A stretch of DNA of 64,000 nucleotides from Candidatus Foliamicus sp. (GTDB taxonomy: Bacteria > Pseudomonadota > Gammaproteobacteria > Steroidobacterales > Foliamicaceae). A model generated the notes under the pieces. It searched no databases and was not told the origin of the DNA. It was given only the letters and a program-made list of their open reading frames with translations. A program made the position numbers and the translations under genes. Below are positions 1 to 62,713 of the stretch, in pieces (the first letter of the stretch is position 1; each line of letters opens with the position of its first letter). The DNA lies in assembly GCA_965261845.1 (NCBI GenBank), contig OZ253475.1, positions 2,790,152 through 2,854,151 of the forward strand, read 5' to 3'.

Positions 1-2585
1 ACGCTGAAGTCGAGTTCGTCGACATCGGTGTCGGGATCGGTCCAGACTTCGAAGAGCTGCACCACGATGACGACCCTGTCCTGTTCCTGGTCCACCTCGA
101 TCGTGGTCGTGCCCGCCTTGGTCTTCGCATCAGTCTTCCGGCTGACCGACCACCTCGCGGGTGTGTCCTCGTCGGCTTCGTCGTCGGCGATGGTGGATTG
201 ACTGAACGTGGGCGCCTCGTCCGCGGCGTCCTCAAGGTCGAAGGTGATGTCCTTATCGTCCGTCTCGCCTGCGCCGTCCGTCACCGTCACCGTGATGTCA
301 ACTTCGTCGTCATCCTCGAAATCCAGGGGCTTGACCGGTGTCCTTAGATCTTTGCCCTTGTCGTCTACCGCCAGCTCCGCCGCCGACTTGGTGTGAATCT
401 CGTAGTGCACGGAATCTTCGTCCCTGCCCACTTCCATCACCTTCAAGCGATTCTTGACGTTCGTGCCTTCCTGTTTCGCCGTAAAATCGACCTCCAGCAC
501 GCCGTATGGATGCGGCGCGATGGCTACGTCATCGTCGCGGACAGAGAAAGAGGCGACCTTCTGCGAACCGGAGCCTTCCGTGTAATCGAACTCCTCGACG
601 TCACGGATGTCGGGCGTATCGTTGTCCCTGTCATCATCATCGGACAGCGCCACAGCCAGCTTGAAACTGGTCTGCGCCGAATTGTCGCCCTCGTCCGTGG
701 CAGTGACCGTGACCGTGTAGACACCACGTTCCGGCAGCATGTCCGCCTTATTGGTCATCTTTCCGGAGTCGGAAATCTGCAGCCAATCCACGACACTGCC
801 GTCGGAATCGACCACCGAAACGGTGTAGGTCAGGTCGTCGCCATCCTCGTCGGTGAAGGCCGCATCGTCTCCGGTCGTATCCAGAGCAAAGCTCAGCCAG
901 TCGCCGTCGCGCACATCTTCTTCATCCAGGTCGTCGTCTACCGTGACCCACCAGTCGCCGATAGTCTTGAGGGCGACCGGGCCGTCTCCGGCCGCAATGT
1001 CCTTGACCGTGATCTTGATCGACTGCGATATGGAAGCGTTGGTGGGATCCTCGCCTTTACCCGGCGCAGTCACCTGCCGGTCGGTAGCGGTAATCTTCAG
1101 GGTGATTTCGTCGCCTGCCTCGAAGTTCAGGGACGCGTCGTCCTTGAGCTTGAGCTGCCCGTCGGCGGTTACCTCGAACCGGGCATCGGCCTCGCCGTCC
1201 ACCTCGAAGGTGTAATCATGCTGACCGTGCGGATGCCTGGCGTCGTCGTTGTCTTGGACCCTCACCGTTCCGAGCACCGCGCCCTTGGCGTTTTCGTCCA
1301 CCTCGACGGCGGTAACGCGAACCACAACGCCGTCCTTTTCCGTCACCTGCAAATCGAGCCGGCTCGGCGCAGCGTTCTTTGCGTCGACAATCACATCGAA
1401 GGTTGCCTCGGCTGTCATGCCTCCGGCGTCCATCGCGATGATCGACAAGCCGTCAATCGAGTCGGTCATGCCGGCCGGTGACGTGCCGGAAATGGTTCCC
1501 ATGATGGTCTGATCGGCGCCGGAGCCCGCAGTGGTCACCGAGAAGGTCAACCAGCCCGGGGCATTGTCCGAAAGCCGGTAGGTGAGCGTGTCACCGTCGG
1601 GGTCCGTGAACAGCGCCTTGAGGTCCACCGTGGTGGAGTTCTCTTCGCCGCCTGCGAAAACCGCGTCGGCAACACCGGTTTCAGCAACCGAGGGGCCTTC
1701 GTTCACGTCGTTGACCGTGACGGTGACTTCCTCGACGTTCGATACTACGCCAGAGCTGTCGGTGTAGCTCACTGTGAGCATCACCTCACCACCGACCTTC
1801 TCGTAATCGAAGGTGGTGCCTTCCGTCATCGCCAGCCACAGCCCATTCTCGGGATCGAGGATGACCTGGAAGTATTCGGCCATGTCGCCGCCAAGGGTAA
1901 CGGCGTCCGCGCCTTCCTGGTGGGTCGTCGGATCGCCGGCATCGGCGTCCATGACTTCGATCAGCGCAAGAGGCGGACCTCCCTTGCCGTCATGCACCGT
2001 GTTCTCGTCTATGGTCAGGCTCGTGTTGACGTCCTTGACCGGCACAATCTCGTTGTCCCGCACATCGACCGTCGGCGCCTCGTTCACGTCACCGATCGTG
2101 ACGGTGACAGTGTGGGTGGCGGATGCGCCATCGCCACTGGCCGTGATGGTTACGTCAACCGATCCACCATCCTCGCTCTCGAAGTCAAGGCTCATGTCAT
2201 CCTTCAACTTCAAGTTGCCGCCGGCAACGCCGCCGTCAACCTCAAACCGCTTGTCGCCCACCATGATCGAGGTCGCGTTTTCAAACGCTACCGCAACCAG
2301 CGTAGCGCCGTCCATGTTCTCGTCCACCGATGCCGTGGCGTCCGCGGTGATCACCGCCGCCGGTGGAGGTGGAGGCGGAGGCGGAGGCGGAGGCGGAGGC
2401 GGAGGCGGAGGCGGAGGCGGAGGAGGCGTCGGCCGTTGCGAGCCTCCACCCCCGCAGGCGTCCAGCGCGAGCGCCAATGCGGGAATTACAAGAATATCCG
2501 CTCGCGACGGATTCTCCCGACGCTGGCGTATCGCCCCTTCAAGGCGCGCCTGCAAGAGTTTGATTACGATTCCTGACTTAGACAT
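1..2585 (-). CDS. Large cadherin-repeat / dystroglycan-type cadherin-like surface lipoprotein. N-terminal ~861 codons are present and the 3' end lies outside the window.
   Basis: The minus-strand frame is open from the window edge to the ATG at 2585-2583, preceded by AAGGAGG. It is absent from the ORF track because no stop lies in the window. The N-terminus is MSKSGIVIKLLQARLEGAIRQRRENPSRADILVIPALALALDAC-GGGGS (hydrophobic stretch plus Cys). About 24 Pro follow, then repeated ~100-aa modules with cadherin-type signatures (DVNEAPT, VNDVNEGPS, DPDGDTLTYRLSDNAPGWLTFS). Confidence 0.8.
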   Translation of the reverse strand, partial: MSKSGIVIKLLQARLEGAIRQRRENPSRADILVIPALALALDACGGGGSQRPTPPPPPPPPPPPPPPPPPPPPPPAAVITADATASVDENMDGATLVAVAFENATSIMVGDKRFEVDGGVAGGNLKLKDDMSLDFESEDGGSVDVTITASGDGASATHTVTVTIGDVNEAPTVDVRDNEIVPVKDVNTSLTIDENTVHDGKGGPPLALIEVMDADAGDPTTHQEGADAVTLGGDMAEYFQVILDPENGLWLAMTEGTTFDYEKVGGEVMLTVSYTDSSGVVSNVEEVTVTVNDVNEGPSVAETGVADAVFAGGEENSTTVDLKALFTDPDGDTLTYRLSDNAPGWLTFSVTTAGSGADQTIMGTISGTSPAGMTDSIDGLSIIAMDAGGMTAEATFDVIVDAKNAAPSRLDLQVTEKDGVVVRVTAVEVDENAKGAVLGTVRVQDNDDARHPHGQHDYTFEVDGEADARFEVTADGQLKLKDDASLNFEAGDEITLKITATDRQVTAPGKGEDPTNASISQSIKITVKDIAAGDGPVALKTIGDWWVTVDDDLDEEDVRDGDWLSFALDTTGDDAAFTDEDGDDLTYTVSVVDSDGSVVDWLQISDSGKMTNKADMLPERGVYTVTVTATDEGDNSAQTSFKLAVALSDDDDRDNDTPDIRDVEEFDYTEGSGSQKVASFSVRDDDVAIAPHPYGVLEVDFTAKQEGTNVKNRLKVMEVGRDEDSVHYEIHTKSAAELAVDDKGKDLRTPVKPLDFEDDDEVDITVTVTDGAGETDDKDITFDLEDAADEAPTFSQSTIADDEADEDTPARWSVSRKTDAKTKAGTTTIEVDQEQDRVVIVVQLFEVWTDPDTDVDELDFS
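2362..2427. repeat. GGAGGC-type hexanucleotide microsatellite encoding the poly-proline linker of the lipoprotein
   Basis: A run of ggtgga/ggaggc units, with at least 8 perfect ggaggc copies at 2371-2418. Read on the minus strand it gives CCT/CCG Pro codons. Confidence 0.9.
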
Positions 2586-2631
2586 GAGTCTGCCTCCTTA
2601 ACGAGCAGTTCCATTGGTTGAAATAGTCGAT

Positions 2632-2640
2632 CCCCCCCCC
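2632..2640. repeat. C9 (G9 on the coding strand) homopolymer, 47-55 nt upstream of the lipoprotein start codon
   Basis: tccccccccc at 2631-2640. It lies between a perfect TATAAT (minus strand, 2697-2702) and the RBS. Confidence 0.9.
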
Positions 2641-3164
2641 GAACGCACTTGCACCTAAGTGCAGCACTAAAGCCGGCGGCGAACTCCATGGGGCGGATTA
2701 TAGAGCAAATTTTTGCTTAATGCATCATGCCGTCGCACTTGTCATAATTGCAACGCGATGTACGCAAAGGTGAATCCGACCGTCCCCTGAACGGGGCTAG
2801 AGAAAAATTCCAACCAGATTGCCGCTTCACGCGACAGACCGGCATCTCGGTCGAGTTACGATTGCTCTTCCCCCCATTCCCTAATTCGTCGACTCACAGC
2901 ACGCAAAGGGATCACTAATATGTAGCGATCAAGATTGTACACGCATCGCGCCACGCGGTAACGCACGATGTCGGCAACAGCCCAATGAGGCCGGCAACAT
3001 GTGCGGCACCGTGCAGGTCACCGCCAGATCGCGCAACTCGATATCGCGCTGGGGCAAACGCAACGCGGCAGGGTAATCCGATGTCCTGGTCGACTTGGCC
3101 TGCCCCAAAAGTCGATTGAGACACGTCGATAGCCATTGCATCAGCGAGAAAGTTCAACCTCAAG

Positions 3165-3246
3165 CGGCTTATCCCCGCTGGCGCGGGGGAACACACGAGC
3201 TTGTTACCAAGCAAGGGCCTATCCCCGCTTGCGCGGGGGCAATCAC
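3165..3246 (-). CRISPR. Two-repeat type I-E mini-array (degenerate repeat, ~20-nt spacer, canonical repeat)
   Basis: Minus-strand read: TAA(cas6e), 16 nt, GTGATTGCCCCCGCGCAAGCGGGGATAGGCCC, TTGCTTGGTAACAAGCTCGT, GTGTTCCCCCGCGCCAGCGGGGATAAGCCG. The distal repeat is almost the canonical I-E repeat (E. coli GAGTTCCCCGCGCCAGCGGGGATAAACCG). The proximal repeat keeps the CCCCGC/GCGGGG stem. No third repeat was seen in the next ~500 nt. Confidence 0.7.
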
Positions 3247-3262
3247 GCGATACCCGCAACAG

Positions 3263-4042
3263 TTAGACCTGCACAGGCGCGCGCTTCGGCGGACGCAGGA
3301 GAAGCATGCCATACCCGTACGCGCGGTGTCGACCGACCCCGCACCGCAGGAGACTAGCAAAGGCGGTTGGGTCATTCACTGTCAGCACGCCGTGAAACAC
3401 CGCCTCCGGGCCTTCTATCATTTGATTTCCTCGCGCCACGCACACTCGCTGAAAGCGAGCCAGCCGGCTGGTGACCCGGTCCAATTCGGCCGCTTTGCGT
3501 AATTGCTCATCGAGCCAGTCAAGATATATGTCCTGGCGCCCGATCTTGGCGTCCGGATTCCGCAGTACGGCCAGCCAGAACGCATCGAGTTCCGTAGATC
3601 CGGCTCCGGGTTTTTCTCCCACTACGCTCCCGTTGCGCGTTTCAATCGGCCGGCTGACCCTGCGCACCGGCCGTGCCTGCACATCAAACCCCAGCCGCTG
3701 CCCTTCGCGCCATTGGTTTGGCATGGGTTTGGTGGTGATCCGGGCCGCGTCCAGCACGGACAAGTGTTCGGGCCACGCAAAGTTCGCTGCCGCTTCACGC
3801 AACTCCGTACCGTCCTTCCTGGAGTATGCGTACAGGTTCCCTGCCGAACTTCTTGGCGGCACCATCAGACGAAACGGGCTCAGGACCTGACGACCGAAGA
3901 CCTCCGTAAGCAGGTGGTGGAGCGCGCGGCCGCGGTCCAAGCGCGCGTGCGCGTTGCCTCGCCGTACCCAGCCGCGCTCGCCCACCCAGCGAGCCAACTG
4001 GTCTAGTCGAACAGGAACGCGAACGAGAAAGAAGCCCTTCAC
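3263..4042 (-). CDS. cas6e: Cas6e (CasE/Cse3) crRNA endoribonuclease
   Basis: The C-terminus GVLTVNDPTAFASLLRCGVGRHRAYGYGMLLLRP matches the Cas6e signature (E. coli GVLTINDAPALIDLVQQGIGPAKSMGCGLLSL). The preferred start is the GTG at 4042, which overlaps the cas5e stop (GTGA). The track ATG at 4096 is an alternative. Confidence 0.85.
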   Translation of the reverse strand: MKGFFLVRVPVRLDQLARWVGERGWVRRGNAHARLDRGRALHHLLTEVFGRQVLSPFRLMVPPRSSAGNLYAYSRKDGTELREAAANFAWPEHLSVLDAARITTKPMPNQWREGQRLGFDVQARPVRRVSRPIETRNGSVVGEKPGAGSTELDAFWLAVLRNPDAKIGRQDIYLDWLDEQLRKAAELDRVTSRLARFQRVCVARGNQMIEGPEAVFHGVLTVNDPTAFASLLRCGVGRHRAYGYGMLLLRPPKRAPVQV

Positions 4043-4761
4043 GGCACCCAACCCTCCACGACGCGTCGGCTGCCACTGTGCAATCCAGTGCGCCATTTGC
4101 GCAGATCCGCCCGTTCAACAAGCCGGTCCACATGCGCCCCACGCTCCGGCCCCTCGCCCACCGGCCACAGCGCCCGCCTGCGAGCTGACGATGATTGGTC
4201 CGCCGCGACGGCACAAAGCGCCGCATAGGCGTTGGGTGCCTCCACCCAACGTTCCGATTCCGGCGCTACCAGAGGCCGCGACGGCAGGCATGTCTTGCGC
4301 CCGACAAACAGGGGGCGGGCCGGGCAATCGAAGGCGTGGGCCAACGCCTCTATCGTTGGTGGCACATTGATCTGCTCCAGCCGCAATACAACGCCAACCG
4401 CCTCATCGGCAAGGTATTCGCGCCTGCGCCGGTGCGGACTGGCATAGGTTCGCCAGCCGCCTGTACGTTGCTCGGGCGCGGCCCGCGTAGTCCAGGCTGT
4501 GTCCCGACTGTTCAGTTCCGCGTTTTGCATGTCGGTCAGCAAGAAACCCTCGCGCTGCTTGTAGGCAGCGAACACGAGCCGGTCTTGCAAGACCTGATGC
4601 TGCGCTCCATCGCACCAATGCCACCCCAGCGCGTTGCCGATGAGTCCGGTGATCATGGAGGCAGCCGGAAAATCCCGAATCGGGCGCACCTGGTCCACGG
4701 CGATTCCTCCGAACGCCATCAGCGGGGCCTCGAGACGCAAGACCAGCCAATGGTGGTTCAT
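4039..4761 (-). CDS. cas5e: Cas5e (CasD)
   Basis: The N-terminus MNHHWLVLRLEAPLMAFGGIAVDQVRPIRDFPAASMITGLIGNALG is the typical Cas5e motif. Its ATG overlaps the cas7e stop (ATGA at 4758-4761). Confidence 0.85.
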   Translation of the reverse strand: MNHHWLVLRLEAPLMAFGGIAVDQVRPIRDFPAASMITGLIGNALGWHWCDGAQHQVLQDRLVFAAYKQREGFLLTDMQNAELNSRDTAWTTRAAPEQRTGGWRTYASPHRRRREYLADEAVGVVLRLEQINVPPTIEALAHAFDCPARPLFVGRKTCLPSRPLVAPESERWVEAPNAYAALCAVAADQSSSARRRALWPVGEGPERGAHVDRLVERADLRKWRTGLHSGSRRVVEGWVP

Positions 4762-5948
4762 TGCGGCAACTGCTGCGGCAAACCCCGGGCCCAAGACGCG
4801 AGATCCGCCAAAGACCCGGGTTGGACATCGGCGAAACCTACATCAGCGATCGAAAGTATGCGGCGCTGCTCACCGGTAGCGTAAACCGCGTCCAGTTTAT
4901 GCAAGTGGGCCGCCAGAACCTCGGCGGCCGCGTCCAGTTCTGGCGCGCACGGCGTGCGGAACGCCTCGGCCAGGCTGCGCGGCTGCCGGTCGCCGGCCTC
5001 CAGCAACATCAGCGACGCGCGCGAATAGGGTGCCGTCGAGCCCAATTTGGCGCCCGGTGAGACTTCGGCAATGAGATGAACCAGATTGTAGAGCACCTTC
5101 CCGGTCAGTGGGGCGCTGGACAGTTCTTCCCCCAGGTTGGCCGCCAGTGACGGGATGTCCACCACGACATACCCGTAGAACAGGCTCGAAGTCAATTCAG
5201 TTTCCTGGATGGTGGCGGCGCTCGATCCGGCTTCAAGCAGATCATCCACCGCCGTCAAGTAGTCGGTTTCCACCTCTTCCGCGTGAACCGAAAACGAATG
5301 CGCGACATGCAGCGGCCCGGTCATGTTGGCGGCGGAGTCCGACGTCACCAGGCGACCGAACAGCGCCGCCGTCAGCCCTGCGGGGAGCTGCGTGCTTTCG
5401 CGCATGGCTCTTATGTTGGCCCGAAACGATTTTTGAGGACTGCCTGTCCCGTCGCCGTCCACCCATCGCTTCGCCAACTTGAATGCGTTTTCCGCGTTTC
5501 CGTCTGCCTGGGCCATCAACCGCGCGAATTCCGTGCCCAGCCATTCAATCTCCGGCACTCCAAACAACAGCGGTTGGCGCTTGTTTTCGAACCTGGACTT
5601 CTCGCCGTGCTCTGTTGGCGCATCCTCGCGATTGAATCCATAAATGGCGAACTGAAACCACGGCGCGAGCGCTTCGACGACAGCATGGTCCCAACGCACG
5701 CCGCTTGAGCGAGCCTGCTTGATGATCTTGTCCACGAGATAGCGCGAACGAACGGACGCCACGCCAATCTTCTCCAGCGCGCGCGGATCTTCCGCCATGC
5801 GCCAATGCCGTTTCAGGCATTGCGAGGCAACGCGCGTGCGCGAGACTCCGCCGTAGGGCAGGCGCTTCGCCAGCCCATCCTCGTCGCGGTTCAGCAAGAC
5901 CCCTGTATAGGGACTTAGGGTGTGGACTTGAAGAAAGCGAGGTCTCAT
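4758..5948 (-). CDS. cas7e: Cas7e (CasC/Cse4) Cascade backbone subunit
   Basis: MRPRFLQVHTLSPYTGVLLNRDEDGLAKRLPYGGVSRTRVASQCLKRHWR matches the Cas7e N-terminal signature (FLQIH.L....NLNRDD.G.PK...fGG..R.RiSSQ.LKR). An AAGGGGA RBS is present. The ATG overlaps the upstream stop (ATGA at 5945-5948). Confidence 0.9.
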   Translation of the reverse strand: MRPRFLQVHTLSPYTGVLLNRDEDGLAKRLPYGGVSRTRVASQCLKRHWRMAEDPRALEKIGVASVRSRYLVDKIIKQARSSGVRWDHAVVEALAPWFQFAIYGFNREDAPTEHGEKSRFENKRQPLLFGVPEIEWLGTEFARLMAQADGNAENAFKLAKRWVDGDGTGSPQKSFRANIRAMRESTQLPAGLTAALFGRLVTSDSAANMTGPLHVAHSFSVHAEEVETDYLTAVDDLLEAGSSAATIQETELTSSLFYGYVVVDIPSLAANLGEELSSAPLTGKVLYNLVHLIAEVSPGAKLGSTAPYSRASLMLLEAGDRQPRSLAEAFRTPCAPELDAAAEVLAAHLHKLDAVYATGEQRRILSIADVGFADVQPGSLADLASWARGLPQQLPQ

Positions 5949-8059
5949 AAAACAATTCCCCTTCTGTGTTCGGCCGCGGACTGGGAAAGCGCCCGGTCCA
6001 AGCAACGATAGTATGGCTGGGCAATTCTCCGCCCGTCCTGCGGCGTAAGCAGAATTGCGACAATATCGGTGACATCGACTCCGGAGCCGCGCGGCATGCA
6101 CGCACTCAGCCTGCGTGCCGCCCGGTGAAGATGGCCGGCGCGCACTTGTCCTCGGGCCACAAGAAGTTGCAGCAACCTCGTCTCGCTAAGAAAAGGCCGT
6201 GCGCTGTGTTGTTCTCGTTCCAGCCAATCGCTATCGCCGCCGTCACAAAATACGGTCCCCAGCCGACGCTGCGGATCATGAAGGGGCGGACGCTCGGCGG
6301 GGTTGCCCTTCGGCGTAAGGATCGCCAAGGTCCGCACGATCGCATTCCATTCTTCTTCGCGGTCTCTTCGCCCGATCGTATCCGGGTGTCGAGCTGCGAG
6401 AGACTCAAACGCCGGCCCGCCCGTGGCGACCGGCATCCGGCGCAGCTGCGCCAATTCGTCGGCACTCATACGCTGCAGCCAGGCCGCCGCGGCGCACGCT
6501 GCATCATCTGTTCGTCTACCATTCAGCTCCTCCGATACAGACAATACAGACAATTCAGGAAATTGCTTGCGCAACCCTTTGCGGAACTGCCTGTGCGCAC
6601 GTGCTTCCGCACGATGCCGTAACGCCGAGGGACAAGGCATGGAAGAGAGACCAGTTTCAAACTCGATCCGTGCAGCGTGCCGAAGATCTTCCAAGAAGGC
6701 CTTTCGGACGCCATCGAACGACCTATTGCCGCCTTCCTGATGCGCCGCCACCCGTTTCCAAAGCGCCTCGAAGAACAACCGATCCGCGCGCCGATCAAAG
6801 CGGCTGCATGCGGTTTGCGCGTACTCGTAGTGTTTGCTTTCACTCCGCCGCCAGTCGCCCCCGGCCGCTACCGCCGCCAAAGCGTTTCTCAACAAGTTGT
6901 CAAACGCTTTGATTTCCTCCATCTGTTGCTTCGCACACTCAGCAGCGGTAGCCGACTCGTAGAACGCGCGCCCGGGCACCGGTACATGGCGTGCGTGAAA
7001 GCCCTCCGTCTTGCGCTTCCCACGCCCAAAAGCCTCCGCTACCAAGACCATGTCTTCGGACTCATGCGGGCCATATTCCGCCAGGATCGGTCGTTTCCAA
7101 TTGCCGGAAAACAGCAGCTCGTTCAGCCGAACATAAGTAAAGCCTCGTCTTCCCAGCGTAAGACTCTTGCCCTCCTTGTTCTCAACCGGGATCCAGGGAT
7201 CGCCGACGTTGCCCTTGAAAGGCCCTCCATCGGTGCGCGGTCTGCCTGAAGTGCTTCGGCGAGCTGTGATTCGCACACGTGCGTCCTCCAGCCGGACCCG
7301 TCGGCTCGTCTCAATGAACCACGGGTCCAGGTTCGGAACCTGCAATTGCTCCCCTTCCGGCCAGGGGAGACACCAGAGCAGCGCTGGGCCGCCGACAGCG
7401 CCCACACCAGAAGTCCGCGAGCCATGCAGCAGCCGGCGAACGTCTCGCGCCCACCACGCCGAAGGGCACACCGTCGTATCAAGCGCCGAGCCGGGCGCCA
7501 ATCCCAGGAGCGGGCGGCTGGATAGGCCGCTGCTCATCCGCACGATCCCATAATTGCCCTGGCCCGAATAGCCGGCCATCGTCTGCAACGAGACCAAGGC
7601 ATACAGCCAGTCCTCTGCCTCGCTCGCATAGGCGACTGCGTGCTTCTCATCGAAGTTCTTGGATGTACTTAGCATGTCCAAGTTGTCGGGAGTCGGCACC
7701 GGCTTCCATTTGAGGCCGCCAGGGTCCGGAGGCTGCAGGAAGGCTGGGCGCTCTGGATTCTCTACGATCAAACACCACGGCTCATCGTGGTCGAAATCGG
7801 TCGTCAATCCGCGCAAAAAGGCCGCCCAAGTCTCGCCATCCTCCGGCAGGCGATCCTGGTCTGCGTTCCACAAAGCCAGCGCCGCCAATTGCACCAGGAA
7901 CACGTGCCAAGCCGCACGCTGATGCGGCCGCAGGGAAACAAATCCCGCTACTTCCTGTCGCGCCATCGCCGCGAACAACCCCGGCAGCGTTAGGGCTTTT
8001 TCTTGCCTGGACCATCCGGACGCGGTAATCAGGGACTCCACCAATAGATTGTGTTTCAT
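5945..8059 (-). CDS. cas8e: Cas8e (Cse1/CasA) fused in-frame to Cas11e (Cse2/CasB), ~704 aa
   Basis: The N-terminus MKHNLLVESLI..LTLPGLFAAM.. and a length of ~515 aa fit Cse1. The C-terminal ~180 aa fit Cse2: LAQLRRMPVATGGPAFESLAARHP..EEEWNAIVRTLAIL..LSETRLLQLLVARGQVRAGHLHRAARRLS..VDVTDIVAILL..IAQPYY. It is a single uninterrupted ORF. The preferred start is the ATG at 8059 (AAGGA 8 nt upstream) rather than the track TTG at 8080. Confidence 0.8.
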   Translation of the reverse strand: MKHNLLVESLITASGWSRQEKALTLPGLFAAMARQEVAGFVSLRPHQRAAWHVFLVQLAALALWNADQDRLPEDGETWAAFLRGLTTDFDHDEPWCLIVENPERPAFLQPPDPGGLKWKPVPTPDNLDMLSTSKNFDEKHAVAYASEAEDWLYALVSLQTMAGYSGQGNYGIVRMSSGLSSRPLLGLAPGSALDTTVCPSAWWARDVRRLLHGSRTSGVGAVGGPALLWCLPWPEGEQLQVPNLDPWFIETSRRVRLEDARVRITARRSTSGRPRTDGGPFKGNVGDPWIPVENKEGKSLTLGRRGFTYVRLNELLFSGNWKRPILAEYGPHESEDMVLVAEAFGRGKRKTEGFHARHVPVPGRAFYESATAAECAKQQMEEIKAFDNLLRNALAAVAAGGDWRRSESKHYEYAQTACSRFDRRADRLFFEALWKRVAAHQEGGNRSFDGVRKAFLEDLRHAARIEFETGLSSMPCPSALRHRAEARAHRQFRKGLRKQFPELSVLSVSEELNGRRTDDAACAAAAWLQRMSADELAQLRRMPVATGGPAFESLAARHPDTIGRRDREEEWNAIVRTLAILTPKGNPAERPPLHDPQRRLGTVFCDGGDSDWLEREQHSARPFLSETRLLQLLVARGQVRAGHLHRAARRLSACMPRGSGVDVTDIVAILLTPQDGRRIAQPYYRCLDRALSQSAAEHRRGIVL

Positions 8060-8115
8060 CGCATCAATCCTTCGCGGCAATACTGGCAGTGTTTCCCTTC
8101 AATTGATACAACCGC

Positions 8116-8913
8116 CTACTGCACCAGCACGCGGGCCGTAACCGTTTCCGTTTGCGGCAGCAGGCACAAGTCGTCCTTGCAGGTCTGGTAAGTAACCTCA
8201 GCGCTCACCTCGTACAACCCGGGCAAGGTGCCGTCCATCGCTTCGACCGATTGCCCCCAGGTCACTGCCTTACCCATGTGAACGTCGTATGAGCCCTTGA
8301 AGCGAAACGGCGGGCGCTTGACCGCGCCTACAGTCTCCAATCCGTCCGGCACGCTGAAGCTCACGCTTGTCTCTTTCATGCCCTGCCCTACATTCCTGCC
8401 GGTTGCGGCATAGATGTACCAGCCGTCCTGCATGTCGAGGTGAACCTTGACGTCCGAGCTTCTGCCCATCTCCAGCACTACCATCGGGTCCACCCGGACC
8501 GAAACCGGTGACAACGGCTGATCCGGCGAATCAGACTCTGCGAGATCCGGTTCGCTGCCGCCCGGCATGTCTTCGACCGTTGCGGTATTGGCGGCAATCA
8601 TCGGTTCTGCCACATTGTTCTTGCTTCCCAACATCACATAAACGCGGCCCTGATGGCGCATCGTGAGCCAATAGCCCTTGCCCATTTCATACAGTCTGCC
8701 GATTGTTTCGTCCCAGTAAGGCTGCTGCTCCACCGCAAACTTTTCCAATTCTTCGTCACTGGGCATTTCGAAAGTCTCGCCTTCCTGCTCGCGTCGGGCA
8801 ACTATTTCCGCATACATGGTGCGATATGTTTCCGCCGTCGGGCGTGGACGCGGGGGATATAAGCCCGGGTCCTTGCCAGCGCTCTCCACCTTATTTACGG
8901 GAACTATATGCAT
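8116..8913 (-). CDS. Protein with a C-terminal DsbD N-terminal (alpha) domain-like fold, co-oriented with the cas operon. It may be 5'-truncated by IS5.
   Basis: The C-terminal ~125 aa fit the DsbD-alpha pattern (..GWHIY.....vsYQgC.d..C.pP): HLDMQDGWYIYA...VTYQTCKDDLCLLPQTETV. There is no signal peptide. The reading frame stays open upstream of the ATG into the IS5 end, which is 15 nt away. Confidence 0.5.
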   Translation of the reverse strand: MHIVPVNKVESAGKDPGLYPPRPRPTAETYRTMYAEIVARREQEGETFEMPSDEELEKFAVEQQPYWDETIGRLYEMGKGYWLTMRHQGRVYVMLGSKNNVAEPMIAANTATVEDMPGGSEPDLAESDSPDQPLSPVSVRVDPMVVLEMGRSSDVKVHLDMQDGWYIYAATGRNVGQGMKETSVSFSVPDGLETVGAVKRPPFRFKGSYDVHMGKAVTWGQSVEAMDGTLPGLYEVSAEVTYQTCKDDLCLLPQTETVTARVLVQ

Positions 8914-8927: not shown

Positions 8928-10098
8928 GGAAGGTCTGAATAACGGCCTACATGGGCCGTGATGCGGTTAGCGCCCTCGCCGTTTGCGGTGAGATCCCGGT
9001 ATTGGCGCCGATTCGACGCAAAAACGGGGGTTTGCGGGGCGTTCTCGACGCCCGCTGCGGTTTCCACAGACACCAACCCCATGTCAGGCGGCCGCATAGC
9101 GGCCAGCGATGAGAAGATTGGTGAAGCCAAGCAGCATCGCGATGCGCTGCGTGTTCTTCGCCAAGCCCCTGTAGCGCACCTTGGAATAGCCGAAGTGGCG
9201 CTTCACATACAGGAACGGGTGCTCCACCTTCGCCCGAATCGACGCTTTGCGCTTCTCAGCCGCTTCCTCGGCACTCGCCTTGTCGAGCCGCCGGCGCCGG
9301 CCCGGCCTCATGGCCACCTGCCAGTCCACTTCCCGACCCTGGTGCTCCGGACGCTTGTGCACGCCCTGGTAGCCGGCGTCGCCTCGCACCTCGGATTCGC
9401 CGCCGTGCAATACCAAGTGCGCGTGCGTCACGTCCGCGCCGTTCGCCGCCGTCGTCGCCAACCCGTGTGTCAGACCCGACTGCGAGTCCACACCGATGTG
9501 CGCCTTCATCCCGAAGTACCAACGGTTGCCCTTCTTCGTGGGGTGCATTTCCGGGTCCCGCTCACCCTTCTTGTTCTTCGTCGACGAGGGCGCGTCAATG
9601 AGGCTCGCGTCCACGATCGTGCCCGTCTTGAGCCGGTGACCTTGCAACGCCAGGTGCGCGTTGATCTCCCCGAACAACTCCTCCCCCAGACCGTGACGCT
9701 CCAGCAGATGCCGAAAGTTCAGGATCGTCGTCTCGTCCGGCAGCGCACCCGTCAGCCGCAACCCCGCAAAGCGACGCACCGACTCCACCTCATACAACAG
9801 GTCCTCCATCCCCGGATCGCTTACGTTGTAGAACAACTGCACGCAGTGAACTCGAAGCATCGTTCCCAGCGGATACGGCCGCCGACCCCGTCCCGCCTTC
9901 GGATAAAACGGCTCAATGCGCCGCTCAAGCCGCTCCCAGGGAATCAGCCGGTCCATCTTCGCCAGAAACTTCTCGCGGCGCGTGCGCCGCTTCTTCAAAT
10001 CGTGCTCCAACTCCGAAAACGTCGCCTGTCCCATCTCAACAACCTCACCGCAAAAACGATACCGCTATTATCCCAGAAAGGACTTGATCAGACCTTCC
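8928..10098 (-). mobile_element. IS5-family insertion sequence (~1.17 kb)
   Basis: Terminal inverted repeats GGAAGGTCTGA at 8928 and (reverse complement) ending at 10098. It carries a single DDE transposase. The flanking tetranucleotides ATAG and TTAG are not identical. Confidence 0.85.
9084..10034 (-). CDS. IS5-family DDE transposase
   Basis: 316 aa. FLAKMDRLIPWERLERRIEPFYPKAGRGRRPYPLGTMLRVHCVQLFYNVSDPGMEDLLYE... and YRGLAKNTQRIAMLLGFTNL are typical of the IS5 group. Confidence 0.9.
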   Translation of the reverse strand: MGQATFSELEHDLKKRRTRREKFLAKMDRLIPWERLERRIEPFYPKAGRGRRPYPLGTMLRVHCVQLFYNVSDPGMEDLLYEVESVRRFAGLRLTGALPDETTILNFRHLLERHGLGEELFGEINAHLALQGHRLKTGTIVDASLIDAPSSTKNKKGERDPEMHPTKKGNRWYFGMKAHIGVDSQSGLTHGLATTAANGADVTHAHLVLHGGESEVRGDAGYQGVHKRPEHQGREVDWQVAMRPGRRRRLDKASAEEAAEKRKASIRAKVEHPFLYVKRHFGYSKVRYRGLAKNTQRIAMLLGFTNLLIAGRYAAA

Positions 10099-12842: not shown

Positions 12843-13877
12843 CTACAGGCGACGCAGCCATCCAGTGATATCGGAACCATCGATGGCGACCTGTCCGCCT
12901 TTCGGCGGCGCCAGTGCATCCGGGAACACCTGCGAGAGCGCGGTGCGCTTCAGGTCGATGTCGGCGCGTGCATAGCGCATAGTGGTGTTGACGCTGGCGT
13001 GCCCGAGCCACTGGCTGATGGTGGCGAAGTCCACGCCGGCTTTGAGGAGTTGGATGGCCGTGGTGTGTCGAAGGGAGTGCGGATGCAGTTGCTTGTCGCG
13101 AAGCGTGGGTGCGGCGCTTGCGCTGGCAGCCAGGTGTTTATTCAGCCGGTAGCGTACGCCGAAGCGCGTCAGCGGTCCGCCGCGTTGATTACGGAACACG
13201 ATGGCGGTCGAGGGATGGTCGTCATTTTCAGATCGTTCGTTATCGATCAGCGTGCGTAGCAACTGCGCGGTGGCGGGCCAGATCGGGCACAGGCGCACCT
13301 TGTTGCCCTTGCCGTGCAGGCGTACTTGGCAAGGCGGCTCAAGGCGCATGTCGCGCACCCGCAGGTTGAGGACCTCCTGGACGCGAGCGCCGGTGTTGAA
13401 CAGCAGCGCGAACAGTGTGTAATCGCGTTGGCCGCCGGAGGTATCGCGGTCGATGCTGTGCAGAAGCGCCGTCATCTCGGCGGTCTCGAAGTACTCGATC
13501 GGTGCTTCTCGCGCGCCGCGTTTGAAGGGGATAGAGAGAACGCTCTGGAGCGTCGCCAGGTACACGGGGTGTTGCGCGATGAGGAAGCGCGCGAACGTGT
13601 GCAGTGCAGCCAGGCGGGCATTGCGGGTGGCGACACCGTTGCGACGAACGCACTCAAGATACTGAAGGAACCGTATCACGCGTTCGCGATCGAGATCGGC
13701 GATCCTGAGCCGCTCGATGGGGCGCTGTGTGTCGCCGGATGCAAAACGCAGGAACAGCACGAGGGCGTCTCGGTAACTCTTGACGGTGTGCGTACTCAGA
13801 CCGCGCAGATGCGGCAGATACTCCTCGAAGAAGCCACGTACCGCCCGGCCGAGTTCGGTGGGTTTACCGGTGCTCAT
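12843..13877 (-). CDS. Tyrosine recombinase, third gene of the RIT trio
   Basis: The preferred start is MSTGKPTELGRAVRGFFEEYL (ATG 13877), overlapping the upstream gene by 14 nt. Catalytic motifs: TGARVQEV, HSLRHTTA, LGHASVNTTMRYA. Confidence 0.85.
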   Translation of the reverse strand: MSTGKPTELGRAVRGFFEEYLPHLRGLSTHTVKSYRDALVLFLRFASGDTQRPIERLRIADLDRERVIRFLQYLECVRRNGVATRNARLAALHTFARFLIAQHPVYLATLQSVLSIPFKRGAREAPIEYFETAEMTALLHSIDRDTSGGQRDYTLFALLFNTGARVQEVLNLRVRDMRLEPPCQVRLHGKGNKVRLCPIWPATAQLLRTLIDNERSENDDHPSTAIVFRNQRGGPLTRFGVRYRLNKHLAASASAAPTLRDKQLHPHSLRHTTAIQLLKAGVDFATISQWLGHASVNTTMRYARADIDLKRTALSQVFPDALAPPKGGQVAIDGSDITGWLRRL

Positions 13878-14850
13878 CGGACACCTCCCCGATGACATGG
13901 CCGCAGTGGCGCGCGAACCGTTCGCTCGCCAGCGCCGCGAGCGTCGGGACAAAACGCAGGTAGTAGGCGGTTGAGACGATCGACACGTGTCCCAGGTAAA
14001 GCGCGATATGGGGCAGACCGCTTTGCACATCGGCGCCGCGCTCGTAGAGTCGCATCAGCGCCTGTACGGCAAAGCTGTGGCGAAGATCATGGACCCGGGG
14101 GCGCCGACCCTGGACATTGCGGACACCGGCGATCTCGAACAGTCGCCCGATGCCCGCACTGAGACCGCTTCCGGTATAGGGGCGCCAGCCCCGCGAGCGG
14201 TTACAAAGTAACGGTGCGCTCGGGCGGTTATCGTCACAGGCAGCGGTCCGCGCGCGAAGGTATCGGCGCAGTTCGCGGTGTGCGCTCGCCGATAACGGCA
14301 CAAGACGCGACTTGTGGAACTTCGACTCGCGCACCCGGATGACGCCGGACTGGGCGTCCAGGTCATCGAGCGTCAGACGCAAGACTTCTCCCCGGCGCAG
14401 CCCGGCGGTGTAGAGCAGGACGAGCGCCAGGCGCAGCACTGCCCCTCGCAACGGCGAGTTCGCCGAGGGTGCCAGCGCGGTCGTGGATGTCAGCATCCCG
14501 GCGATCTGCTCGGGTTCGATGAGGACCGGGACTCGATAGGGTTGTGGGCGGGCGAAGTACAACGGGTCCGGTACAAAGCAAGCGGGTTCGGTCCTGCGCC
14601 GATACAGGCAGAGCCGGCGCACGATGAGCTGGCGGGCGCGGCGCGTGTTGGCGGAGAGCGGCTTGAGGTGTTCGCACCAACGATCGAAGGCCGTCGGATC
14701 GAGATCGCTCGCACCGGCCTGCAAAAGGAAGCTGCGAACGCCCCGTAGCACGTCCTCCTCGTTCCGGTAGCCGCGCCCCAGTGTTCGCTGGTGCGCGAGG
14801 AAGGCGCATATCGGCGCATCGAGGACGGTGCCCGACAACCGCTTATCCAT
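13864..14850 (-). CDS. Tyrosine recombinase, second gene of the RIT trio
   Basis: 328 aa. Motifs: TAGLRRGEVLRL, HDLRHSFA, LGHVSIVSTAYYL. Confidence 0.85.
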   Translation of the reverse strand: MDKRLSGTVLDAPICAFLAHQRTLGRGYRNEEDVLRGVRSFLLQAGASDLDPTAFDRWCEHLKPLSANTRRARQLIVRRLCLYRRRTEPACFVPDPLYFARPQPYRVPVLIEPEQIAGMLTSTTALAPSANSPLRGAVLRLALVLLYTAGLRRGEVLRLTLDDLDAQSGVIRVRESKFHKSRLVPLSASAHRELRRYLRARTAACDDNRPSAPLLCNRSRGWRPYTGSGLSAGIGRLFEIAGVRNVQGRRPRVHDLRHSFAVQALMRLYERGADVQSGLPHIALYLGHVSIVSTAYYLRFVPTLAALASERFARHCGHVIGEVSDEHR

Positions 14851-15007
14851 GACCGTGCTCCTCGATACCGGTGAGGCGGGGCACCGGAAGCGCCACGGCG
14901 CGCAAGGCCTTGATATCCAAACGCAGATAGACGCACGTGCTCTCCAGGCTACGATGGCCGAGAAGATCCCCGATCGTAAGCGTTCGGTTACCGGGTGATT
15001 TGCTGGC

Positions 15008-15889
15008 TTATCGGTTGAGGATTCGTTTCCAGTCTTTTCGGAGAGGGCGCAGCCAGATGGTCTTTATCGGCTTATCGTATTTCTTGTGCCGGTCGTAGCG
15101 TCCGCGGCCCTGGGTGATGCCGACCGGTGTCCATCCGGAGGCCTTGTAGGTGGCGCCGGTGAAGCGTGGGGTCTCGACGAACGTCTCGATCAGCACCGGG
15201 GTTGTGTTGTAGCGCTCGCCCCAGTCCGGGGGCAGTTGCCGGCCGACGGCGGAGAGGATGTGCGAGGCGAGGTTGGGGATCGTGATCCAGGGCAGGATGA
15301 GGAAGCGCGCGTTGTCGATCACCCGCGGCAGGTTCTTCTCGCGCAGCGCCGGTGTCCAGCCGATGAAGCGGTCGCGCGGGGCCAGCTTGCGCGCTGCGGT
15401 GGAGAACCCGAGCAGCGCCAGCAAGCCGCCGTGGCGGTCATGGACGGTGTAGCGCATCTGGGCGCCGACCAGGGTCTTGTAGCCGAGGTAGTGGTAGCGG
15501 GCGATGAACGCATTCCACTGTTTGCTTTGCGGCGTGCCGCCAAGCACGGTGCGCAGCCGGATGGGGCGCACCTGATCGAGTCGTTGCGGTGGCGGATCCG
15601 GCGGCGCGTCGGTGTCGGGTCCGAACGCGATCGGCCCGGCGCGGTTCTGCCCCCACTTGGGCGGCGGCAGTTCGATGCGCCCGTCCTTGTGCATGGCCAG
15701 CATGGTCACCCGCGCCATCATGTCCTTGAGCCCGCCATCGGGCTTGTACCAGCCGATGCTTTTGCAGAACGCCTTGGACAACGCATGGCGGGTCAGTGCT
15801 GGCGGGCCGGCGATCAGCGCGCGCAACACCGCCATCTCCCCGGCGGTGAAGTCGCGACCGTAGTAACGGCACTCGATGGCTCCGGTCAT
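15008..15889 (-). CDS. DUF4338-like protein encoded inside the IS66-family element
   Basis: The preferred ATG at 15889 overlaps the transposase stop (ATGA). ..WNAFIARYHYLGYKTLVGAQMRYTV..LLGFSTAARKLAPRDRFIGW..RVIDNARFLILPW..NLASHILS..VLIETFVE..FTGATYKASGW fits the DUF4338 family, the signature domain of Druantia DruA. The assignment is from memory. Confidence 0.6.
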   Translation of the reverse strand: MTGAIECRYYGRDFTAGEMAVLRALIAGPPALTRHALSKAFCKSIGWYKPDGGLKDMMARVTMLAMHKDGRIELPPPKWGQNRAGPIAFGPDTDAPPDPPPQRLDQVRPIRLRTVLGGTPQSKQWNAFIARYHYLGYKTLVGAQMRYTVHDRHGGLLALLGFSTAARKLAPRDRFIGWTPALREKNLPRVIDNARFLILPWITIPNLASHILSAVGRQLPPDWGERYNTTPVLIETFVETPRFTGATYKASGWTPVGITQGRGRYDRHKKYDKPIKTIWLRPLRKDWKRILNR

Positions 15890-17847
15890 CCCGGCGCCAT
15901 CCACTCGCGCCGGCGCGCCGGGCTCATCGACCAGGGCAGCCACTCGTCCAACTGCGGCGGCGCCCGTGCACCCTGGGCCGCGCAGGCGCTGAGCCACTCC
16001 CGCAGCCAGCGGTGCACATCGATGCCGTTCAACGCGAGCGTCTCCATCACGGTGTACATCAGCGCGGTGAACCGCGCCCCGGCTTCGCTATCGGAACCGA
16101 ACGACAGGCGCCGTCCGATGACCGCGCCACGAAGCGTGCGTTCGGCAAAGTTGTTGTCCATGGGCACGTCAGGGCGTTCAAGGAACACGCAAAGGCCCGC
16201 GCGATGATTCAGCAGCGAGCGCAACGGCTTGCCCTCGATCGCCGCCTCTTCCAACGCCGCCAGTTCGCCTTCGGCGGTAGCGAACAGGCGCTCCAGCTCC
16301 GCTTCGAGCGCTTGCTGCGCGTCGGCGAACGCCCCGTCGGGTCGTTGCCGGCCGGGCTCGTAATGCGCCAACCGCTGCCGGTTCAGCCGGTAAATCGCAG
16401 CCACCCGTTGCAGCCACGCTTGGCACCAGTCCGTCAGGTGCACCTGCCCGGCGGCGGCGGCGATAAAATCGCGGCGTTGATGGACCCAACACCACGACAG
16501 GAGAATCCGGCCTTCCAGGAGGCGGGCCAGCTTCTTGTAGGTGGCGAGCCGGTCGACCACCAGCACCTGCTCGCCCGCGGCCCCACCGAACACCGTCAAG
16601 GCCGCCTCGGCGCTCCGCGACGGGTCGATGTGGAAGTACACCGCATCCCCCGTGACCGAGACCCACAGCCAGGCTCGACCGCTCCGCCCCGCCTGCCGCA
16701 GTGCCTGGATACGCCAGCCGGTCTCGTCACCGTGGCGCACCGCCGCCCGGTTCTGGCGATCGAGAATCGCCCGCGCCAGCGGCTCGAACAGCGGCGCGAA
16801 CCGGGCGATGCCGCCGGCCAGCGTGCCGGCAGAGACCGCAAGGCCCTGGTGCGTCAGCCAACCCGCAACCCCGTTGAGGGGGCGATGGCAGACATAGCGC
16901 TCGAACAGCACGCACGCCCACACGCTGGTCCCGTAGGAGGTGCGGGGGTACAGCCGATGCGGCGCCGGCGCGATGACCGCCTGCGGCGAGTCCTCACAGT
17001 CGCATGCCCGGCGCCAGCGGGGGCGGACGATACGGCGCCGATGCGCCCGCACCTCGATCTCGACGATCTCCGTGCACCGATCCCCGTTGGCGACGTACGG
17101 CGTGCCACAGCCCGAACAGCGGCGCGCCCGGGCCGCAAGATCCTGCACTTCATCCCGTTGCTCAAGCCCCGGCCGCGCCGTTCGGCCATGACCCCGGGCA
17201 CCGGCTTGCTGGCCGCGCCGACGATCGGAATGCGGCTTCTGCTGCCGCTCGCTCTTGCGCCCGTACAGCGTCTTCGACAGCACCGCGCGACTCGCGCGCA
17301 GGGCCGCCAACTCGGCCTCCAAGGCCTCAATGCGGGCGCTCATCCCGTCCTGCGCGGACACCGCCGCGCGCACTTCCTGGCGAAGTTCGGCGTTCCGCCG
17401 CCGCAGCAACGCGTTGCTCCGGCGCAGTGTTGCATTCTTCCGACACCACTCCGTATTCTTGCGCTGCAATTGCCCGACTCGCCGGCGTAACAACACCGGG
17501 GTGGAGCGCCACGACATACCCGCCGCCGACAGCAGCCGCTTAAGCTGCTCTACCTCCGCCTGCAACGACAGCGCGTCCCGCGCCGTGCGGCGCACCGCCT
17601 TGGTCTCCTCGCGGGCCTCGATCAGCTTGACGCGACCGGACTCAAACTGAGCCTTCCAGGACGCGGCCTTGCCACGGGCGCGAACTTCCGCCCAACGATA
17701 CTCCTGCGCTCGGGCCTCGGCCTCCGCCACGCACGCCTGCGCTTCCTCATACAGCAACCGCCAGTCGCGCGAGGAACAAGACCCCTCCGACCCTTCGACA
17801 ACCGTCAGTACGGCGCCAACATTCCGTGCGCAACTCGCCATGCGCAC
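15886..17847 (-). CDS. IS66-family transposase (TnpC-type)
   Basis: 653 aa. N-terminal coiled coil, then LYGRKSERQ, a Cys cluster (CSGCG), and ..HGDETGWRI..AWLWV..CWVHQRRDF..VPMDNNFAERTLRG. Confidence 0.9.
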   Translation of the reverse strand: MRMASCARNVGAVLTVVEGSEGSCSSRDWRLLYEEAQACVAEAEARAQEYRWAEVRARGKAASWKAQFESGRVKLIEAREETKAVRRTARDALSLQAEVEQLKRLLSAAGMSWRSTPVLLRRRVGQLQRKNTEWCRKNATLRRSNALLRRRNAELRQEVRAAVSAQDGMSARIEALEAELAALRASRAVLSKTLYGRKSERQQKPHSDRRRGQQAGARGHGRTARPGLEQRDEVQDLAARARRCSGCGTPYVANGDRCTEIVEIEVRAHRRRIVRPRWRRACDCEDSPQAVIAPAPHRLYPRTSYGTSVWACVLFERYVCHRPLNGVAGWLTHQGLAVSAGTLAGGIARFAPLFEPLARAILDRQNRAAVRHGDETGWRIQALRQAGRSGRAWLWVSVTGDAVYFHIDPSRSAEAALTVFGGAAGEQVLVVDRLATYKKLARLLEGRILLSWCWVHQRRDFIAAAAGQVHLTDWCQAWLQRVAAIYRLNRQRLAHYEPGRQRPDGAFADAQQALEAELERLFATAEGELAALEEAAIEGKPLRSLLNHRAGLCVFLERPDVPMDNNFAERTLRGAVIGRRLSFGSDSEAGARFTALMYTVMETLALNGIDVHRWLREWLSACAAQGARAPPQLDEWLPWSMSPARRREWMAPG

Positions 17848-23071: not shown

Positions 23072-23170
23072 TGGAGTGCCCCAGGTTTGGTGGACACTTC
23101 CGGGCTATGTTGGAGTGCCCCCGATTTGGTAGACACTTCCGGGCTATGATTGGAGTGCCCCCGGTTTGGT
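23072..23170 (+). repeat. ~39-bp tandem repeat of the IS3 subterminal sequence, 2.5 copies here. The third copy continues at 24574-24612 after the nested IS.
   Basis: TGGAGTGCCCC(A/C)GGTTTGGT(G/A)GACACTTCCGGGCTATG(T/AT) at 23072, 23111 and 23151. A single related copy (..GAGTCAAGCCGCCATGGCCGACACTTCC) occurs at the other IS3 end at 59.12 kb. Confidence 0.85.
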
Positions 23171-23174
23171 GTTG

Positions 23175-62292: not shown

Positions 62293-62369
62293 TGATGCCT
62301 CCCGGTTGCTTGATCGCCGCGCGGCGAGACTCCCTCTGCCCTCTCCACGCCGTTCGCCCCCCGCCCGCT

Positions 62370-62681: not shown

Positions 62682-62713
62682 GCCTTCTCCCTCTATTCCA
62701 GCGGTGCTCGCAT

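Follow-up and report, generated by a model that had tools for sequence, protein, structure and literature searches.

The type I-E Cascade operon and its two-repeat array

The stretch of DNA analysed here, 64,000 nt from Candidatus Foliamicus sp. (GCA_965261845.1, contig OZ253475.1, positions 2,790,152-2,854,151; hereafter the window), carries an operon for a type I-E Cascade (CRISPR-associated complex for antiviral defence) followed by a CRISPR array that has two repeats only. An earlier note on this DNA had proposed four intact open reading frames (ORFs), and profile searches together with fold comparison confirmed them on the minus strand at 3263-8059: a cas8e::cas11e fusion (5945-8059, 704 aa), cas7e (4758-5948, 396 aa), cas5e (4039-4761, 240 aa) and cas6e (3263-4042, 259 aa). 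The genes are chained by the overlaps ATGA at 5945-5948, where the start of cas7e meets the stop of the fusion gene, ATGA at 4758-4761 and GTGA at 4039-4042, each verified at exactly the proposed position. Translation of cas8e likely begins at ATG 8059, which has GAAGGA ahead of it, and not at TTG 8080.

Cas7e (Pfam Cas_CT1975, 8e-79; TIGR01869, 3e-74), Cas5e (TIGR01868, 1.4e-49 over residues 5-236 of 240; PADLOC Cas5e) and Cas6e (Pfam CRISPR_assoc, 1.5e-30; TIGR01907; a C-terminal match to CasE in the PDB) score far over the curated cut-offs of Pfam, NCBIfam and PADLOC, the PADLOC models being derived from CRISPRCasTyper. In Cas6e, the alignment with complete relatives shows that the GRALHHLL histidine motif and the G-rich loop have been retained; the C-terminus of this protein alone weakly matches type IV Cas6 models, and all subunits score as I-E families in PADLOC. 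The fusion consists of a Cse1-like part (residues ~1-505) and a Cse2-like part (~518-691), recognized by PADLOC in one polypeptide as Cas8e (4e-143, residues 4-502) and Cas11e (7e-34, residues 518-691), with weaker but concordant matches to TIGR02547 and Pfam Cse2. A hidden Markov model (HMM) profile of the fusion matched no PDB sequence, so fold comparison was needed: the AlphaFold2 model (20 homologues in the alignment, pLDDT 72) resembles Cse1/CasA crystal structures (Foldseek E ~4e-7), and its C-terminal 180 residues resemble the CasB/Cse2 structure. The separate cas11 ORFs of complete relatives share 47-57% identity with this domain. Cas5e is fully covered by its own model and the fusion by the Cas8e and Cas11e models and the Cse1 and CasB folds, and no HNH or PD-(D/E)xK domain, nor any other Pfam domain, was found in Cas5, Cas8 or Cas11.

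The absence of cas3, cas1 and cas2 from the 64 kb, claimed by the earlier note, was borne out. Cas3, Cas1 and Cas2 queries taken from complete sister loci and verified with Pfam, including three I-E Cas3 seeds, gave no tblastn match anywhere in the window; the search covered these 64 kb of a 3.57-Mb contig together with the sequenced flanks of related loci (up to 10 kb on either side). Among the large ORFs scanned with Pfam, the sole helicase-containing protein is a TrwC/TraI relaxase. The slot of cas3 upstream of cas8e is filled by an ORF of 265 aa (8116-8913, minus strand), and the DsbD-like character that had been ascribed to it stands (Pfam DsbD_N at 9e-7 and 29.4 bits, above the cut-off of 25). 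The weight given to its place in that slot is misleading, however: the gene occurs only in the window genome and in the near-identical metagenome locus L001 and therefore lies outside the conserved module, and with no homologue at other loci it was rejected as an accessory effector. Likewise, no Tn7-like tnsABC/tniQ genes adjoin the Cascade genes, as had been stated; the neighbours are IS5, IS21 istAB, tyrosine recombinases and IS66, none of which is conserved across the closest relatives.

Repeats do follow cas6e, with a gap to the 29-nt repeat of 19 nt; the 16 nt given previously assume a repeat start 3 nt further upstream. Only two repeats are present (3243-3215 and 3193-3165, minus strand) at a period of 50, and they enclose one spacer of 21 nt instead of 32. 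Repeat 1 (ATTGCCCCCGCGCAAGCGGGGATAGGCCC, 3215-3243, minus strand) comprises a hairpin and the 8-nt 5' handle ATAGGCCC, the single spacer is TTGCTTGGTAACAAGCTCGTG (3194-3214, minus strand), and repeat 2 (TGTTCCCCCGCGCCAGCGGGGATAAGCCG, 3165-3193, minus strand) has a hairpin that is kept in the family and 3' 8 nt that are not. The arrays of complete relatives have a 61-nt period.

A conserved guide in the closest relatives

A first scan of genome contigs with a single protein query returned no matches, and the GTDB representatives do not include the source genome. From GTDB genomes and JGI metagenomes, 160 related I-E loci were obtained. The protein search gave about 10 clusters (90% identity) at 65-71% identity to the Cas8e part, and relatives from the plasmid database were complete I-E systems only. 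We refer to the seven distinct loci window/L001, L002-004/L090, L007/008/010, L009, L170, L171 and L172 as Group A; L007/008/010 lie on the chromosome of a gammaproteobacterial metagenome-assembled genome (MAG; OY762064.1). All Group A loci have cas8e-cas7e-cas5e-cas6e followed by a two-repeat mini-array.

Alignment of the seven mini-arrays revealed that the repeat-1 hairpin, the 8-nt 5' handle ATAGrCCy and the repeat-2 hairpin are invariant, and so are spacer positions 1-5, 7 and 9-11, with the pattern TTGCTnGkTAA. Position 6, to a lesser degree position 8, and everything from position 12 onward vary, the spacer length ranges from 21 to 28 nt, and neither the 8 nt past the repeat-2 hairpin nor the DNA flanking the array on both sides is conserved. 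Judged from this alignment, selection acts on exactly those nucleotides that would enter one mature CRISPR RNA (crRNA) and would pair in two 5-nt segments, position 6 being free. In CreR and CreA elements, pseudo-repeat 1 keeps the 5' handle and pseudo-repeat 2 the 3' handle, and the part of the spacer proximal to the protospacer-adjacent motif (PAM) alone matches the target (10.1101/2023.03.10.532045); a like description has been given of the regulatory mini-arrays that occur in complete I-E, I-F, I-B and I-D loci (10.1101/2023.03.03.530964). The pattern in Group A is the one reported for these elements.

A single Cas11 domain per complex was considered as the cause of the short spacer and rejected. 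The complete I-E locus L011 (7419-16200, from a Rhodothermales MAG) has a Cas8e-Cas11e fusion together with cas3, cas1, cas2 and a normal array of 61-nt period, and an account by Cas11 dosage is also contradicted by most Group A loci, which have no Cas11 at all. Since L011 combines both features, the fusion is not tied to the loss of Cas3 and is compatible with canonical immunity.

Recurrence of the gene losses and purifying selection

Comparison of synteny showed that the operon recurs, without cas3, cas1 and cas2, in six other distinct loci with different flanks: tblastn found none of the three genes in the flanks available for Group A, and the upstream contexts vary between P4-type integrases, an S24 peptidase with a helix-turn-helix (HTH) protein, AlpA, or insertion sequences (IS). 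The earlier note had named a split by local IS5/IS21 insertion as one finding that would overturn it. Such a split is unlikely, because relatives without those IS also lack cas3, cas1 and cas2, and the IS insertions of the window therefore came after the nuclease and adaptation genes had been lost.

The same evidence bears on the broader explanation that this is an ordinary I-E immune system with its cas3, cas1-cas2 and main array elsewhere in the genome, split off or acting in trans, and with the mini-array as a CreR-like regulator. The locus sits amid IS5, IS21, IS66 and three tyrosine recombinases, a regulatory mini-array normally belongs to a complete system (10.1101/2023.03.03.530964), and the 64 kb examined belong to a contig of ~3.6 Mb. 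Nevertheless, we hold this explanation to be improbable: among the seven Group A loci, most of them without these IS, none has cas3, cas1 or cas2 in its flanks, complete relatives always keep these genes contiguous with Cascade (all 86 of the 86 'separate' loci that were fully classified), and no target for the guide was found in the cas promoter region.

Pairwise dN/dS values between the window and its orthologues, taken at dS 0.5-1.4, are 0.14-0.23 for Cas8e, 0.15-0.25 for Cas7e, 0.18-0.28 for Cas5e, 0.19-0.38 for Cas6e and 0.29 for the Cas11 domain; the proteins were thus under purifying selection while the loci were already Cas3-less. A non-functional remnant, decaying slowly after the loss of cas3, cas1 and cas2, could account for the loss of Cas11 in most of Group A (the domain is retained in the window and L002 only, and the other five loci have none), for the IS-rich neighbourhood and for two disrupted frames, a local double frameshift in L170 cas6e (3.4x coverage) and a G-run deletion in L171 cas8e; these disruptions could reflect errors of sequencing or, in some members, genuine decay. 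The values of dN/dS, at dS up to 1.4, speak against such a remnant, as do the retained start/stop coupling and catalytic-type motifs and a guide seed that stayed conserved while the flanking non-coding DNA was randomised. Moreover, the L171 frameshift sits in a G-run of a long-read-style contig, and we regard slow decay as highly improbable. Recurrence, purifying selection and the conserved guide seed together support the view of the earlier note that a nuclease-less Cascade has been maintained and repurposed.

The giant gene downstream of the mini-array

The mini-array is followed by a non-coding leader (2586-3164, minus strand), partly conserved in the alignment, and by the 5' part of a giant gene (3-2585, minus strand; 861 codons), which is open and leaves the window at its edge. 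The gene is whole in L001, whose contig is 99.8% identical, and encodes there an acidic protein of 1691 aa with cadherin and He_PIG repeats. The protein has an N-terminal signal-anchor/lipobox-like segment (ALDAC) and a poly-proline linker, and the part encoded in the window is identical in the L001 translation; in the DNA, the linker of this giant lipoprotein corresponds to a (GGAGGC)n tandem repeat of 9.8 copies at 2365-2423 (coding on the minus strand). A giant ORF occupies the same position in L002, L007, L009, L170 and L171, and the L172 contig ends just past the start codon. It begins with MSKSGTVIQLLQARLE in L002, L007 and L009 and with close variants in L171 and L170, the latter having a disrupted frame at the start; Pfam assigns cadherin and He_PIG domains to the products of L002 and L007. 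In L171 (6860-7300) two copies of the 5' end of the giant gene, each with the ribosome-binding site (RBS) and ~150 nt of coding sequence, flank an AT-rich insert of ~200 nt, so that the RBS-proximal TTGC... site is present twice.

The leader holds an extended -10-like element TGTACAAT (2941-2934), a TATAAT (2702-2697) and the Shine-Dalgarno (SD) sequence AAGGAGG. A consensus scan of the leader for promoters gave no full sigma-70 match, and a known RNA was rejected as its content, with no Rfam family matched. A G9 tract in the leader (2632-2640, minus strand) is G8 in L001 and could be either a site of phase variation by slipped-strand mispairing or a sequencing error. Another side observation concerns an ORF of 16 codons, MSM(K/T)(A/T)PVR(T/N)G(C/Y)RC(S/F)RG, possibly leaderless, which directly follows a conserved TACAAT box downstream of the mini-array in L002 (9020-9075) and L007 (14597-14650); it is kept between these two loci and not in the window.

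These features invite the explanation that the locus is a relic of CreTA-type addiction, in which Cascade and its guide would persist because they keep a toxic gene repressed, be it one for a small CreT-like RNA or peptide or one for an envelope protein that is harmful when over-expressed; their loss would kill the cell, and no regulatory benefit would be needed. The mini-array has a CreA-type architecture, a conserved promoter-like TGTACAAT lies just downstream of it, and L002 and L007 have the mini-ORF, found by eye, in common; CreTA itself is described as a module in which CreA-guided Cascade represses a toxin (PMC8501985, PMC9458426). Against this, the mini-ORF has no conserved counterpart in the window, L009, L170 or L171, the guide has no match at the TGTACAAT promoter, and no toxin family was detected, so that we assign an addiction relic only a small probability. 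Autoregulation of the cas promoter after the CreR model was a further candidate. It is disfavoured and CreR-type autorepression is argued against, because the region upstream of cas8e contains no consistent match to the guide.

Further Cas3-less clades among type I-E systems

Most of the 160 related I-E loci are complete, with cas3 upstream, cas1-cas2 downstream and 61-nt arrays. A neighbour-joining tree of Cas7, built without bootstrap, places the Cas3-less loci in at least four clusters that are set apart from one another by complete systems, with the complete loci L023, L026 and L093 as sisters of Group A. At least two further Cas3-less I-E clades, here B and C, have a fixed guide of their own.

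Clade B (L047, L100-105, L092, L006/L015) has the mini-array guide TTGTGnTACCCnCG, with positions 6 and 12 variable, for which no convincing target was found. The L006 mini-array (5090-5190, minus strand) lies 4.9 kb upstream of cas8e and on the opposite strand, and L092 keeps a weak Cas3-like remnant (30% identity). L047 (6536-9670) and L006 have common, conserved upstream neighbours, a secreted protein of 536 or 563 aa and an outer-membrane protein of the Slam/SlipAM kind; standing next to Slam, the secreted protein may be a Slam-dependent surface lipoprotein.

Clade C (L050, L062/063, L080, L097-099; e.g., L098 3876-5111 and 10990-11080) comes from alphaproteobacterial MAGs, two of which contain two copies of the locus per genome. 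Its loci are without Cas3, Cas1 and Cas2, have a separate cas11, and carry the guide ATGGAyCArTGAGTTGGC, which varies at positions 6 and 18. In L050, L062/063 and L098 the locus adjoins a Porin_4 gene. The best non-self match of the L098 guide, at 13 of 15 pairing positions, falls in the 5' coding part of the porin gene on the coding strand (spacer-shuffle p=0.0115), and the homologous site agrees at 11-12 of 15 positions in L062, L063 and L050. L050 has an extra mini-array (~19000-19100) with two variant guides, of which the ATGCA variant fits the ATGCAG-type porin site at 14 of 15 positions when compared by hand position by position.

A link with cell-envelope genes recurs in clades B and C and in Group A, and the parallels offered by the two clades raise the plausibility that such guides regulate in cis. 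We tentatively suggest a generalization on which we would not yet lean, namely that Cas3-less I-E Cascades with a fixed guide could be a recurrent, hitherto undescribed class of natural RNA-guided transcription factors with at least three independent origins from immune I-E systems, which would control adjacent envelope genes through R-loops of 10-17 bp. The genes concerned may be the giant cadherin-like lipoprotein in Group A, Slam and the secreted protein in clade B, and porins in clade C.

Apart from these clades, the fused Cas8e-Cas11e stand-alone operon of L005 (14809-16830) abuts a 28-unit array of 36-nt repeats. On the opposite strand these repeats end in ...ATTGAAGC, which we take to be a typical 3' end of non-I-E repeats, and the array probably belongs to a neighbouring system past the contig end.

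Proposed function and candidate target

We favour, with some reserve, the reading that the locus is a domesticated type I-E Cascade that would serve as an RNA-guided DNA-binding regulator, a natural form of CRISPR interference (CRISPRi), and not as an adaptive nuclease system. Gene content, conservation and the pattern of selection are read directly from the DNA, and from them we infer transcription, crRNA processing, binding and the target. The operon transcript would include the mini-array, and Cas6e would cut it at the two hairpins, releasing one crRNA-like RNA that consists of the handle ATAGGCCC, a guide fixed in its first 11 nt, and a 3' hairpin; this species is predicted to be ~50 nt long and to begin with AUAGGCCC. 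Loaded with it, Cascade would bind a PAM-flanked site via ~10 bp in two 5-nt segments with position 6 flipped out, and without Cas3 it would stay on the DNA and block RNA polymerase. Cascade without Cas3 is known to silence genes (PMC4288158), and Cas11 has been found dispensable for silencing (PMC12235044), which fits the five Group A loci without Cas11.

A weak candidate protospacer, CTGCTCGTTAA, lies at 2598-2608 (minus strand) on the coding strand just 5' of the giant gene SD. It agrees with the window guide at 8 of 10 pairing positions and with the family pattern at 10 of 11, and in the window, L002, L007 and L009 no local site matches better than this RBS site at its homologous position (8 of 10); by eye, L171 and L172 also reach 8 of 10 and L170 reaches 6 of 10. 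In this orientation the crRNA would pair with the template strand, and targeting of the template strand by Cascade is more effective inside transcribed regions (PMC4288158). From these matches we consider it rather unlikely, though worth naming, that the guide is directed at the site 5' of the giant gene SD; otherwise the target may be an unlinked site in the host or in a conjugative element.

Several observations weigh against a guided regulator at this locus, in addition to the L170 and L171 disruptions and the scope of the contig search noted above. Matches such as that at the RBS site are expected by chance about 0.5 times per region and are not significant alone, the site is usually mismatched at seed position 7, and its positions 7-11 drift while the guide is fixed; because of the chance expectation, the mismatch and this lack of co-variation with the guide, the RBS site is only a candidate. 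Full or seed matches to the guide, sought in the window and in all Group A and fetched loci, revealed no good site, with the weak RBS site the only one to recur, consensus scans yielded no assignable promoter or terminator, and the link with the giant gene may be mere shared synteny within one mobile-island lineage. Guide matches noticed at the 3' ends of cas2 in Rhodobacterales loci were discarded as being within chance expectation.

Mobile-element surroundings

An F-type conjugation module extends over 24800-50340 and includes a TrbI-like protein, TraC, an SSB-domain protein, TrbC, TraH, TraG, TraD/TrwB and the TrwC/TraI relaxase-helicase; it is preceded by an S24 LexA/CI-like repressor (24820-25521, minus strand) and an HTH_17 protein. 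The cas operon is bordered by an IS5-family transposase (9084-10034, minus strand; Pfam DDE_Tnp_1/DUF772), and the stretch that separates the operon from the conjugation module holds IS5, IS21, three tyrosine recombinases and IS66. This cluster, together with the conjugation module, places the locus in a mobile, mosaic region. The GC content is ~71.5% in the module for the type IV secretion system (T4SS) compared with 62% in the cas operon and 60-62% in the first 24 kb, and the window probably spans an integrative and conjugative element (ICE) or a composite mobile region.

Such surroundings raise the explanation that the nuclease-free Cascade is a type IV-like weapon of a mobile element, which would silence a conserved site in rival plasmids or ICEs or in host defence genes. 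The F-type T4SS, coupling protein, TrwC relaxase, S24 repressor and HTH_17 protein of the window would suit it, and so would the integrases that flank L002, L009 and L171, the TrwC relaxase near L006 and the difference in GC between the cas operon (62%) and the T4SS module (71.5%). However, with one invariant 11-nt guide and no adaptation genes, diverse competitors could not be tracked, and exact scans of IMG/VR returned no viral match either for the 21-nt spacer of the window or for the clade B guide, plasmid targets lying outside this search. A weapon of this kind therefore appears very improbable to us, and domestication as a regulator remains the reading that we prefer.

The three tyrosine recombinases stand in a row at 12843-19008 and resemble a 'recombinase in trio' (compare L001 1-3106). 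In the window the trio is split by an insertion of ~2.9 kb, an IS66-family transposase with a DruA-domain ORF, that is absent from L001, and L001 has another IS (DruA/DDE_Tnp_1, ~2.1 kb) between the mini-array and the giant gene. Because the insertions differ between the window and the 99.8%-identical L001, IS movement must be very recent. Past the conjugation module, at 60742-63884, a GC-rich stretch has two minus-strand ORFs, one with a YspA/SLOG (YAcAr) domain and the other with a DUF4326 domain, and two adjacent imperfect tandem repeats (39 nt x 2.5; 24 nt x 2) lie at 23072-23226, in intergenic DNA between the low-GC and the high-GC part of the window.

Comparison with known systems

In 2015, Rath et al. 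raised the question of whether nature has a Cascade that regulates transcription without Cas3 (PMC4288158), and the locus and its relatives are concrete, directly testable candidates. The current classification and a terascale survey list I-E2, I-E3 and I-E5 and treat incomplete Cas3-less type I systems only in passing (PMC12669027, PMC10910872), and a full-text search of the literature returned no description of a Cas3-less I-E Cascade with a conserved regulatory mini-array as its sole guide. The system is compact, with four genes (three Cas proteins and Cas8 being enough in most relatives) and a 79-nt guide cassette, it is evolutionarily maintained, and it recurs in separate lineages. If the proposed function is true, CRISPR effectors have been domesticated as dedicated regulators of host or mobile-element genes, possibly those of adhesins or phage-receptor surface proteins. 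The locus would then also define the minimal guide length and the Cas11-independence of I-E Cascade binding in vivo and put naturally optimised CRISPRi scaffolds at hand.

With the canonical I-E systems of E. coli and Thermus (Cascade-Cas3) the locus shares homologous Cas8e, Cas11e, Cas7e, Cas5e and Cas6e in the canonical order, a 29-nt repeat, the CCCCGC-N4-GCGGGG hairpin and an ATAxxCCx handle. It differs from them in having no Cas3, Cas1 or Cas2, in the fusion of Cas8e with Cas11e (Cas11 being absent in most close relatives), and in one fixed 21-nt spacer where they have an array of acquired 32-nt spacers with a period of ~61 nt (29-nt repeat, 32-33-nt spacers). Regulatory mini-arrays (CreA, CreR and crlRNAs of I-B, I-E, I-F, I-D and V-A systems) likewise consist of two repeats and one short spacer, favour the repeat-1 handle and the repeat-2 hairpin, conserve the PAM-proximal part of the spacer and are expected to repress without cleavage. 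The known ones serve complete, nuclease-competent systems and target the cas promoter or the promoter of a neighbouring gene for a toxin or cargo. Here, by contrast, a Cascade without Cas3 has the mini-array as its only guide, and the search of the cas promoter yielded no target.

Among the derivatives of class 1 systems, types IV-A and IV-B are similar in that their complexes have no effector nuclease or adaptation module, reside on mobile elements, and bind and silence DNA; the proteins of this locus, however, belong to I-E families and not to Csf, they have no DinG or CysH partner, and they come with a single fixed guide in contrast to plasmid-derived arrays. CRISPR-associated transposons (CASTs; I-F3, I-B, V-K, I-E5) and HNH-armed Cascades (I-E2 Cas5-HNH, I-F4) are also type I derivatives typically without Cas3, and CASTs additionally use atypical or short 'homing' guides with partial complementarity. 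Unlike CASTs, the conserved module has no tnsABC/tniQ beside it, and the nearby IS21 istAB is absent from relatives; unlike the nuclease-armed I-E2, I-E3 and I-F4 Cascades, the locus has no HNH or PD-(D/E)xK domain in Cas5, Cas8 or Cas11. Makarova et al. are said to have described in 2020 an I-E variant without Cas3 beside a STAND NTPase, and no STAND gene was seen here. The engineered delta-cas3 CRISPRi of E. coli, in which Cascade and a minimal array without Cas3 bring about stable silencing (PMC4288158), is alike in composition, but it is artificial and uses fully matching 32-nt guides, while the system at this locus is natural and has a guide of ~11 nt.

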